Part shown: piece by piece, positions 2,223 to 5,491 of the stretch
Layout of the letters: every line of letters begins with the position of its first letter
How positions within the stretch are numbered: position 1 is the first letter of the stretch
From: Promethearchaeia archaeon
GTDB taxonomy: Archaea; Asgardarchaeota; Lokiarchaeia; Sigyniarchaeales; SOKP01
DNA: 32,000 nt
Assembly (NCBI GenBank): GCA_046497275.1
Contig: JAWOFX010000041.1
Span: 1-32,000, forward strand
Reading direction: 5' to 3'
The notes under the pieces: model-generated
Told to the model about the DNA's origin: nothing
The model's input: the letters and a program-made list of their open reading frames with translations, nothing else
Database searches by the model: none
Program-made: the position numbers and the translations under genes

Positions 2223-2645
2223 ATGAAGGTTCATTTAAATTTTGTGGATAATCTCCATTTTAAAGCACAAACACGCCATTTTACTGATATTGAAATGGAT
2301 GAGCCCGAATCATTTCATGGGACTGATCAAGGACCTAGTTCAGTAGAATATTTATTAATAGGAGTTGGAGGATGTATAGGTTCTTCATTCGTGTATTGTC
2401 TTCAGAAAAATAACGTTGAAATTAAAAATCTTGATGTGGTTGTTGAGGGAACTCTTAAACATGTGATGCCAAAGATGCATCTAAGACTAATTAAGATAGA
2501 TTGTGTGATCAATATATCTGCAAAATCCGAATTTAACAATCTAATAGATGATTGCGTCAAAGAATTTAAGGAACATTGCGTAATTAATGAAAGTATTACC
2601 AAGGGCATTCCCTTAAATACAAAAATTCATAAAAAAGAAAAATAA
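2223..2645 (+). CDS. OsmC/Ohr family protein
   Basis: DEPESFHGTDQGPSSVEYLLIGVGGC and a second Cys in EHCVINESI; start moved from 2118 to the ATG at 2223 (MKVHLNF), which follows AAGGA. Confidence 0.85.
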   Translation: MKVHLNFVDNLHFKAQTRHFTDIEMDEPESFHGTDQGPSSVEYLLIGVGGCIGSSFVYCLQKNNVEIKNLDVVVEGTLKHVMPKMHLRLIKIDCVINISAKSEFNNLIDDCVKEFKEHCVINESITKGIPLNTKIHKKEK

Positions 2646-2658
2646 AAAAATAAAAAAG

Positions 2659-3890
2659 TTAGAAATAGAAGACGGTTATTTTGTCGGGAATCTTAAGATC
2701 TTCTTCTCTGTTTTTGCACGCTACAAATTTGAGATTCAATTTTAAAAGTAATGATAATAATCTGCTTGTTAAAATACCATCCATTATGAGATATGAAGAT
2801 TCTTTATATTTATCTAATTTCTCATATAAATTACCGACTGATATCTCAAATAATTGTTCTAAATCATCATCTAACGCTATAGCTTGTCCTATCCCAATAT
2901 TTCTTACCTTATCGATGATGAGATCTTTATTCTTTACTTTTAATTTCTTCAAAAAGCGGGAAAGAATCTTTTCTTTTTCTGAATAATCTTCTTTTTCATC
3001 TTCTTCAGAGGGAATTTCTTCAACAAATTCCTCAACTCCTCCTTCTTTCACCGCTCTTTTATTTTGTAAAGATTTTATCATCTGTTTTCGGGTTAATTCC
3101 TCAACTTCATATCCTTCAGGTGCTCGAGCAACGTAATCAATGTCCGCAACTTGTAGTAATTCTTTGAGAATTAAAGTACCACCTCTATCACCATCTCCGA
3201 AAAATGTAACGGGACTTTTTTCTTTGGTAAGATCAATTATTGATTTTGGAACGCTTGTTCCTTGAACGGCAACCGTGTTTTTGATGCCAATACGAAGGAG
3301 GTTTAACACATCTGCCCTGCCTTCTACAATAATAAGATCCTCTCTTTCATCTATATCTGGTCCAGCAGGTAAATTTTCTGGACCCCATGTCACAATTTCT
3401 CCTAATTTGATATCTGTATCTATTTGTTCTTCGATTTCACTTGCATCTAGCGAGCTTTGATCCCATTCTTTTAATAATTCTGCTGCTCTTTCAATTATTT
3501 TTTTCCGTTTAGTTTCTCGAACATCTGATATTTCAATTAATTTGATTTTCGCTTCACATGGGCCAACTCTTGAAACCGTTTCGACAGTTGCTGCCAATAA
3601 TGCGGTTTCTTTTCTAGTCAGAGAACTGGGTATACGAATAGTGCCTTTTGAAATTCCATCTTTTGATTCATTCTCAACCTCTATTCGCCCTATCCTTCCG
3701 GATTTTTGTAAATCACGCAGGTCTAAATCTAAAAGAAGACCTTCGGTTTAGACGAGAAAAGGAGCTCTTTTCATCCTTGCCCGAAGATAGCCCCCACTAT
3801 ATCTGACTTTTCGACAATACCCTTTACCTTAAAATTTGCTTCTATTATATATTTTGTAGTAAAATCTGTCTGGTCGTTAATCTTGATCAC
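2659..3890 (-). CDS. dnaG: Archaeal DnaG (DnaG-like primase / exosome-associated protein), about 400 aa, read as two segments: 3890-3777 and 3747-2659
   Basis: TOPRIM motifs IIVEGRADVLNLL and FGDGDRGG. Manual translation upstream of the called ORF gives TTKYIIEANFKVKGIVEKSDIVGAIFGQ, then TEGLLLDLDLRDLQKSGRIGRIEV...PSSLTRKETALLAATVETVSRVGPC. The two parts join in frame only if 3748-3776 is removed. The GTG start at 3890 is inferred. Confidence 0.93.
3748..3776 (-). other. 29-nt insertion in dnaG; candidate bulge-helix-bulge (BHB/BHL-type) mRNA intron
   Basis: mRNA-sense sequence GGAUGAAAAGAGCUCCUUUUCUCGUCUAA between codons CAA (Q) and ACC (T). It contains an in-frame UGA and shifts the frame. 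Central helix GGGC/GUCU is followed by AA^ on both strands; inner stem GA-U-GAAAAG/CUUUUC-UC; outer stem AUCUUC/GAAGGU. Confidence 0.7.
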
Positions 3891-4006
3891 TTCCAAAAAT
3901 TAATTATAAAGTTTTTCATATTCTTCTAATTCATTAATATAAGATTTGATAAAATAACTTTCAATTAATTATTCTTTTTAATTTAATATGTTTTAATTTT
4001 CAATTA

Positions 4007-4456: not shown

Positions 4457-5491
4457 ATGGAAAGAATTCTTTGTCTCGGAGGAAAAGGTGGTGTTGGAAA
4501 GAGTTCGATTAGTGCGGCAACCGCAGTTAAATTATCTAGGCTATTACCAGAAAAGAAAATCCTAATTATCTCTTTTGATATGGCACATAATTTGTCAGAT
4601 TTATTTAAAAGACAAATTGGAAATGATCTTACTAAATTGAGTGAAAATCTCTGGGCTATTGAGCCCGATCCGAACATATATGCAGAATTATACACCAAAG
4701 AGCTTATTGAGAAATTAAAAACTCTTATGAAACAAATGCCTATCGTAGGCTTTATTCCTCAAATTGAAGAATATATTGATACTACTTTTACGACTGATTC
4801 GATTCCATTAGCTTTAAAAAATGCCATGTTTTTCCAGAAGATTTTGGATGCCGAAGATTTAACTCAACAAATCCAATTTGATATTGTGGTTGCAGATTTT
4901 CCACCTACTGGGAATATGGTGGCACTCTTTGAAATTCCTGAAGATCAAGTTACAACCGTGCTTAAATATTCTCTAAATTTTTATAATTCTATTAAAAGCA
5001 CAATGAACGATTTGGGAAAAATGGTTAAAAAATTCATCGCGCCATTTAGCGATAGTAAGAAAAGAAGACAATTAGGGATAGAAATCGTAAATATGGTTCA
5101 GGATTTAGAAGAACGAGGAGAACGTATCACCCAGCTAATTCATAGCATCGGTTCATTACGATTAGTAACAATAGCAGAAAAACCTAGTTTTGAAGAGATC
5201 AAGAGAGCGAGAGATTTAACCAAAAAATATATCACTTTAGATGCGGTTCATATTAATATGTTAACGCCAAAAAAATATGCGGATGAATGTGAATTCTGTA
5301 ATAAACTTCGAACAACTCAGCTAAGATACAATGAAGAAATTATGAATGAATTTGGAAAATTGCGAATTTGGAAATCAAAAAAATTAGTAGATAAGGAACC
5401 TATAGGTTTAGAAGGTCTGATGATTTTAGCAGATGAAGTTTATGGGAAAATGATATCAGCTGAAGAGATTCTTTATCCTAAATCTCACTGA
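4457..5491 (+). CDS. ArsA/Get3 (TRC40) family ATPase
   Basis: Deviant Walker A GGKGGVGKS, switch I-like SFDMAHNLSDLF, switch II-like DFPPTGN, C-terminal CEFC; single ATPase domain. Confidence 0.88.
   Translation: MERILCLGGKGGVGKSSISAATAVKLSRLLPEKKILIISFDMAHNLSDLFKRQIGNDLTKLSENLWAIEPDPNIYAELYTKELIEKLKTLMKQMPIVGFIPQIEEYIDTTFTTDSIPLALKNAMFFQKILDAEDLTQQIQFDIVVADFPPTGNMVALFEIPEDQVTTVLKYSLNFYNSIKSTMNDLGKMVKKFIAPFSDSKKRRQLGIEIVNMVQDLEERGERITQLIHSIGSLRLVTIAEKPSFEEIKRARDLTKKYITLDAVHINMLTPKKYADECEFCNKLRTTQLRYNEEIMNEFGKLRIWKSKKLVDKEPIGLEGLMILADEVYGKMISAEEILYPKSH

Follow-up and report, generated by a model that had tools for sequence, protein, structure and literature searches.

A probable bulge-helix-bulge intron in the dnaG message of an Asgard archaeon

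An interrupted dnaG gene

The gene dnaG of a Promethearchaeia archaeon, a member of the Promethearchaeota and an Asgard archaeon of the Lokiarchaeon type, is split in its DNA by a short insert of 29 nucleotides (nt). The gene lies on the minus strand of contig JAWOFX010000041.1 (assembly GCA_046497275.1), within the stretch of 32,000 nucleotides (positions 1 to 32,000 of the contig) that was analysed and is called the window here. The genome of this host comprises 3.85 Mb, is 98.9% complete and holds a single copy of dnaG. On the minus strand, the interrupted text reads GCU AUC UUC GGG CAA, followed by the 29 nt (3776 to 3748) and then by ACC GAA GGU CUU. The parts of the gene, including an insert whose presence was compared between assembled public RNA and DNA contigs, are as follows.

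3777..3890, minus strand: dnaG exon 1, 38 codons from a GTG at 3890, with the C-terminal end GAIFGQ
3748..3776, minus strand: probable intron of 29 nt, missing from RNA contigs X3 and X8 and retained in DNA contig X1, with same-site inserts in 36 relatives
3771..3773, minus strand: in-frame UGA; the unspliced reading passes through GGA and then stops, for a product of 39 residues
2659..3747, minus strand: dnaG exon 2, 362 codons (3747..2662) and a stop codon at 2661-2659, with the N-terminus TEGLLLDLDLRDLQKSGRIGRI

An alternative TTG start at 3896 would lengthen exon 1 to 40 codons. Exon 2 by itself matches the NCBIfam profile NF003108 ('DNA primase DnaG') with 371.6 bits, against a cut-off of 300, and a Toprim domain is detected in its product. 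The match covers profile positions 27-279 and, because it begins at position 27, the first 26 positions of the profile are absent from exon 2. When the exons are joined, they encode 400 amino acids (aa); an alignment of this product with an intron-less homologue shows 70% identity and no gap at the junction, and the exon joint CAA-ACC (Gln-Thr) gives the conserved motif GAIFGQTEGLL. The 29-mer itself occurs only once in the window. An earlier note on this DNA, made from the sequence, had claimed that an insert at 3776-3748 divides dnaG into segments of 38 and 362 codons and that unspliced translation ends at UGA after 39 residues. The insert was found at these positions, and the stop is read directly from the sequence.

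Removal of the insert from RNA and its conservation

The insert is present in DNA and absent from RNA. Public sequencing runs that contain the dnaG stretch include DNA metagenomes and 12 runs recorded as metatranscriptomes; one of the DNA runs and three RNA runs, each of a different study, were compared at contig level with window positions 3300-4000. Two RNA contigs, which come from two separate metatranscriptome studies, cross the site and lack exactly the 29 nt. Both X3 (1403 nt, depth 13.5) and X8 (769 nt, depth 29.1) show this deletion, placed at 3748, at full depth, with zero further mismatches to the window over 495-662 nt. The DNA contig X1 (4853 nt) also spans the site and retains the 29 nt (deletion depth 0/7.22), and the contigs of the third RNA run, X10, do not reach it. 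Because such contigs are k-mer assemblies, reads spanning the junction must exist in both RNA libraries. Furthermore, the record coordinates of X3 give an expected span of about 2559-3990, approximately dnaG with roughly 100 nt on each flank (the comparison itself covered 3300-4000), and this extent should correspond to that of an mRNA and not of carried-over DNA. The presence of a spliced dnaG message in public RNA, together with a single, broken dnaG in the genome, means that an essential gene depends on RNA splicing.

Some further records from public data concern the same site. The RNA contig of X8 ends at window position 3823 in Illumina adapter sequence, which is a library artefact and not a transcript end. 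Four words sampled from an 81-nt stretch centred on the intron occur in DNA runs X1, X2, X4 and X16 and in RNA runs X14 and X23; the last two belong to two of the salt-lake studies, P5 and P3, and P3 is also the source of the spliced contig X3. These occurrences were not counted as evidence. A pattern search of JGI metagenome contigs for the spliced or unspliced junction of the host species returned no matches, which is uninformative either way.

The site of the insert, its central helix and its cut geometry are conserved among relatives. The comparison set, 41 related genomes and 80 loci from named records, yielded distinct junctions numbering 36 with the intron and 49 without it, and in many of the relatives' dnaG matches the open frame begins exactly at TEG. 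The boundary of the insert is identical throughout: the Gln codon CAR precedes it and ACN GAR GG follows (GQ^TEG). Lengths vary (29, 30, 31, 32, 34, 35, 37, 38, 39, 40 and 43 nt) and fall into all three classes modulo 3. Every insert opens with an early in-frame stop (AGA UAA, GGA UGA or UGA), and all but two of the 36 end in a UAA in the frame of exon 2. Exon 1 is free of stops in each of the 36 intron-bearing genes, and its consensus equals that of the intron-less genes. Since both sides of a frame-breaking insert have been kept intact in dozens of lineages, the insert must be removed; together with the RNA data, same-site inserts in 36 relatives make it a real conserved feature, beyond chance. 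In the host's own genus, it is carried by all five other genomes with a dnaG match, the nearest at 83% identity.

RNAalifold predicts a single element from the alignment of the 36 sequences, a helix of four base pairs (bp) between columns 10-13 and 53-56. Its consensus joins exon GGNC to intron GNYU, the latter at positions -6 to -3 relative to the 3' splice site, and it is paired in every one of the 36 homologues (100% of cells). The Gly wobble pair, 12-54, takes five forms among them (CG 21, AU 6, UG 5, GC 2, GU 2); the Gly wobble base is variable in intron-less genes too. Both strands of the helix are followed by A-A/G-N, and on both sides the cut that restores the frame falls after the second of these bases. 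Over the whole structure, 92.7% of cells are paired; sliding the 3' partners by 1-3 columns lowers this to 24-52%. The first two pairs of the inner hairpin (columns 17-52 and 18-51) are conserved. The outer helix was not counted as support: its columns are paired in 87.5% of cells with almost no two-sided change, and they consist of Phe and Glu codons, where coding constraint may explain the pairing.

Fold, cut geometry and competing explanations

The predicted pairing in the host transcript is composed of the following elements.

3783..3788, minus strand: outer helix, 5' strand AUCUUC, pairing with GAAGGU at 3739-3744 at a 2-nt offset from the strict position
3779..3782, minus strand: central helix, exon strand GGGC, spanning the Gly codon (wobble base G3780) and pairing with 3750-3753
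3776..3778, minus strand: 5' bulge AA^G, 3 nt, with the 5' splice site past its second base, in agreement with the RNA junction
3754..3775, minus strand: inner hairpin h', composed of G-C, A-U, bulged U3773, 6 bp and the loop AGCUC
3750..3753, minus strand: central helix, intron strand GUCU, pairing with 3779-3782
3745..3749, minus strand: 3' bulge AA^A and unpaired exon CC, 5 nt in all when the best outer helix forms; the 3' splice site is past the second base
3739..3744, minus strand: outer helix, 3' strand GAAGGU, pairing with AUCUUC at 3783-3788

Exon and intron pair in a 4-bp central helix, as in introns of the bulge-helix-bulge (BHB) type that are excised by EndA, the archaeal splicing endonuclease. 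On the 5' side the bulge is AAG, bounded by the inner helix, and on the 3' side it is effectively AAACC (5 nt). Because of an AA repeat, the cut position can be drawn 1-2 nt to one side; three junction registers are equivalent, and the central helix is paired only in the one that cuts after CAA and after UAA. Exact removal of 3748-3776 in RNA places both cuts after the second base of a bulge. Judged by its predicted pairing, the motif is relaxed and HBh'-like, not a strict hBHBh'.

It is very probable that positions 3748-3776 are an archaeal BHB intron in the dnaG pre-mRNA, cut by EndA and joined by RtcB, whose removal restores the 400-aa DnaG. In the proposed mechanism, the transcript would pair exon GGGC with intron GUCU, forming the central helix with a 3-nt bulge after each strand. 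EndA, probably a heterotetramer of catalytic and non-catalytic subunits, would cut past the second base of each bulge and would accept the relaxed 3' side. RtcB would subsequently join the exons as CAA-ACC, so restoring the GAIFGQTEGLL motif and the full-length protein, and the intron would be released, possibly as a circle. Without splicing, only the 39-residue peptide would be made.

A relaxed BHB mRNA intron in an Asgard housekeeping gene is what the earlier note had proposed, and RNA, DNA and comparative data now back the proposal. The GGGC/GUCU helix, the AA^G and AA^A cuts, the inner stem with its bulged U, the loop AGCUC and the outer AUCUUC/GAAGGU pairing that it described are all present. 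It had suggested looking for the insert in DNA, for spliced transcripts, and for same-site inserts with compensatory changes in relatives: DNA contig X1 retains the 29 nt, the exact 29-nt deletion occurs in RNA contigs of two metatranscriptome studies, and the compensatory changes are seen in the central helix. An intact dnaG paralogue and decay of this copy had been named as signs to the contrary; there is no paralogue, and exon 1 is undecayed. Two of its secondary ideas fared less well. A hairpin insertion with duplication of an AA target, offered as a fallback, leaves the removal at the RNA level unexplained. The hairpin formed by the spliced junction, suggested as a target of insertion, needs the ACC codon of the host, and most relatives have ACA, ACU or ACG.

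Several observations weigh against the EndA-spliced intron. The RNA and DNA runs derive from different studies, and contigs lose rare variants and give no ratio of spliced to unspliced message. Covariation in the central helix may reflect some 3-5 independent changes among lineages, far fewer than 36. The strict hBHBh' form is absent, and the strict register lacks any outer pair. The BHB fold is also energetically unfavourable: at -14.5 kcal/mol, against a predicted minimum of -23.0 kcal/mol, it is 8.5 worse and its Boltzmann weight is about 2e-6, and the central helix appears in the minimum-energy fold of only 2 of the 36 homologues. The predicted minimum in the host genome is an 8-bp exon-exon helix with an internal loop; such competing folds vary between genomes and none is conserved. 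The local fold has a z-score of -1.3. Thermodynamic folding was dropped as support, since the minimum-energy fold is another one in the host and in 34 of the 36 homologues, and EndA would have to capture or induce the BHB.

These weaknesses give some room to other activities. Removal of the 29 nt from the RNA by a nuclease other than EndA and a ligase, or by a self-cleaving activity that recognises the hairpin, would accommodate the relaxed 3' side and the distance of the BHB from the minimum-energy fold, and the role of EndA is itself deduced. Such removal is nevertheless very unlikely. Both cuts obey the EndA rule, each falling exactly two bases 3' of one strand of a 4-bp helix that covaries, and the independent introns found elsewhere in dnaG form canonical BHBs with central helices and 3-nt bulges. 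Moreover, EndA and RtcB are both encoded, and no observation calls for another activity. We know of no ribozyme class as small as 29 nt. Group I and group II introns have a ribozyme core of hundreds of nucleotides; a self-splicing intron of either group was ruled out by the 29-nt size of the insert and by an Rfam search, which returned nothing relevant and only a chance, sub-threshold match.

Splicing would not be demonstrated if the RNA contigs came from a strain whose DNA had already lost the insert, which is slightly less likely again. Precise loss does occur among close relatives, as at locus L057 inside an intron-bearing clade, and the different origins of the RNA and DNA runs would allow for it. 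However, the RNA contigs carry no further mismatch over their compared length, every other dnaG-matching genome of the genus has the insert, with none closer than 83% identity, and selection on exon 1 in 36 lineages makes sense only if the exons are joined. Ribosomal bypass in the style of phage T4 gene 60, with take-off at CAA and landing before ACC, can be considered highly improbable. It would suit the stop one codon past the putative take-off, the hairpin in the gap and the UAA before ACC, which could pair weakly with the Gln tRNA, but the mRNA itself is without the 29 nt, and the take-off and landing codons are mismatched in several homologues (CAG/UAA, CAA/UAG, CAG/UUA). Finally, next to no weight can be given to a broken pseudogene or an assembly error. 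Although the DNA copy is frameshifted and has an early stop, the insert is held by an independent DNA contig and recurs at the same site in 36 independent assemblies; the copy is the sole dnaG of a nearly complete genome, and both of its exons are conserved.

Splicing enzymes, distribution and known systems

The host genome encodes two EndA paralogues (C46:30392-30622, 201 aa, and C168:8310-8564, 200 aa), both with N-terminal and catalytic domains. One is closest to the Aeropyrum and Sulfolobus subunits of solved structures and keeps a His aligned to the conserved His of Aeropyrum pernix; the other has Asp at the catalytic His position. The pair is consistent with a heterotetrameric (alpha-beta)2 enzyme, probably with one catalytic and one non-catalytic type of subunit. 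Cleavage of non-canonical motifs has been reported for EndA enzymes with an (alpha-beta)2 or epsilon2 architecture (PMC5829648; PMC2738675). By analogy with this class, the two-subunit type of the host EndA would imply a broad specificity (PMC5829648). Two full-length paralogues of the RtcB ligase are also encoded (C100:5154-6461 and C145:7959-9266, with open frames of 487 aa and 503 aa), and we infer that EndA and RtcB act on the dnaG transcript.

Other genes of this genome are interrupted as well. The RNase HII gene (C102:15411-16050, L130, minus strand) contains a candidate mRNA intron, a 31-nt split within GIDEAG^RGP with a UGGG/CCCA helix and the bulges AG^U and AA^A. Among the cold-shock-domain genes of the host, two of seven are interrupted. 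One (C20:17862-18086, L129) carries, inside the domain match and between DSRK and GYGFI, 30 extra nt that keep the frame but bring in the stops TAG and TGA, and this insert shows no fit to a symmetric BHB register; in the other (C121:8348-8518), the first ten profile positions are missing. A genome-wide de novo scan, which combined the BHB motif with the fusion of two open frames, gave no more matches to the true motif than to slid controls (860 vs 851-905, 138 vs 119-151 and 57 vs 48-72). As true and control matches are equal in this AT-rich genome, a scan of sequence alone cannot count mRNA introns.

Transfer RNA genes pose a related difficulty. The program aragorn found only 19 of them, nine with introns, and is unusable as a census of tRNA introns because two of the nine are implausible (874-888 nt). 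Most tRNA genes of the host are probably too interrupted for standard finders. Interrupted Asgard tRNA genes that escape such finders are described in a 2026 preprint on Asgard tRNA introns (10.64898/2026.10.13.758758).

In an unrooted tree of 99 DnaG sequences, the presence and absence of the insert requires at least 10 changes, and well-supported branches make 3-4 of these unavoidable. Every basal clade of the host's family carries the insert. In a mixed clade, differences are very recent, with the insert-free L057 placed within a short-branched, intron-bearing clade. The intron is thus probably ancestral to the host's family of Promethearchaeia and has since been lost precisely many times, with gains being possible because the tree is unrooted.

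A wider survey covered 400 genomes of the phylum and targeted look-ups. The same GQ^TEG site is occupied in families f3 (29 nt), f33 (32 nt, GGCC/GGUU) and f20 (31 nt, 3 of 4 central pairs). Ten codons upstream (VE^RPD), family f6 carries a canonical hBHBh' intron of 37 nt, with GUAG/CUAU as the central helix, an inner 9-bp helix and an outer 2-bp helix; the example, L111 in genome G279, lies ~60-100 nt upstream of TEG, between GIVE and RPDVVGALFGQ. In family f19, a 28-nt intron is found five codons downstream (TEGL^LGEDLDL), with GCCU/GGGC and the bulges AC^A and AA^U (L113/L114, genomes G248/G254). All f19 genomes have weak best dnaG matches (E about 1e-20), several of them have two matches, and the 28-nt intron may be general across this family. 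Sampled members of f15, f23, f24 and f25 have a dnaG that is uninterrupted in this region. On these comparisons of sequence, introns recur in Asgard archaea within about the first 50 codons of dnaG, at three positions in six families.

A broader reading is possible, and we lean slightly away from it. The dnaG intron could be one example among a great many unpublished introns that EndA splices from Asgard protein messages, the GQ^TEG intron being older than the split of several families and precisely lost many times, and the first about 50 codons of dnaG being hit recurrently. If this were true, splicing of protein-coding messages by the tRNA machinery would be common in the archaeal lineage closest to eukaryotes, and an RNA-exosome/primase subunit could be expressed only as far as the splicing machinery had capacity.

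In the searchable literature, the only archaeal protein-coding intron of the EndA type that was found is that of the cbf5 pre-mRNA in Crenarchaeota (Aeropyrum, Sulfolobales, Desulfurococcales; Yokobori et al. 2009, PMC2738675). A literature search for dnaG introns or for Asgard mRNA introns found none, and an October 2026 preprint on Asgard introns deals with tRNA genes only (10.64898/2026.10.13.758758). Like the dnaG intron, the cbf5 intron is short, lies in an archaeal coding sequence and has a BHB motif that is often relaxed; both are attributed to a hetero-oligomeric endonuclease of broad specificity, and both show a patchy spread through gain and loss (PMC2738675). In contrast to the cbf5 intron, that of dnaG resides in another gene and another phylum (Asgard/Promethearchaeota vs Crenarchaeota), has no sequence relationship to it, and belongs to related lineages with introns at three positions of one gene. 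EndA also excises BHB introns from archaeal tRNA and rRNA (Marck and Grosjean 2003, cited after 10.64898/2026.10.13.758758). The dnaG intron differs from these in its mRNA host, in an exon half that is also constrained by codons (Gly-Gln, Thr-Glu) and in lacking a strict outer helix.

A eukaryotic parallel is the splicing of HAC1/XBP1 mRNA, which is carried out by Ire1 and a tRNA ligase or RtcB and is regulated by stress. It resembles what is proposed for dnaG in that a protein enzyme, without a spliceosome, cuts at mRNA stem-loops, a small intron is removed, joining is by a ligase of the tRNA type, and the frame changes. It differs in its endonuclease, Ire1 instead of EndA, and in its motif.

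The RNA data show that an essential gene needs splicing in an Asgard archaeon, a member of the group closest to eukaryotes, and the intron involved is conserved, covarying and repeatedly lost across dozens of genomes. Annotation pipelines will label such dnaG genes as broken or truncated, and estimates of Asgard completeness and pseudogene content are affected. With 36 variants, and with intron-bearing and intron-less alleles within a genus, dnaG offers a natural system for spliceosome-free gain and loss of introns. It also allows testing whether the capacity of EndA gates gene expression.

Two genes flank dnaG in the window, both on the plus strand. At 2118-2645 lies an OsmC-like gene that is convergent to dnaG, with 14 nt between their 3' ends, and 4457-5491 encodes an ATPase of the ArsA/Get3 type (PF02374, E 6e-52).

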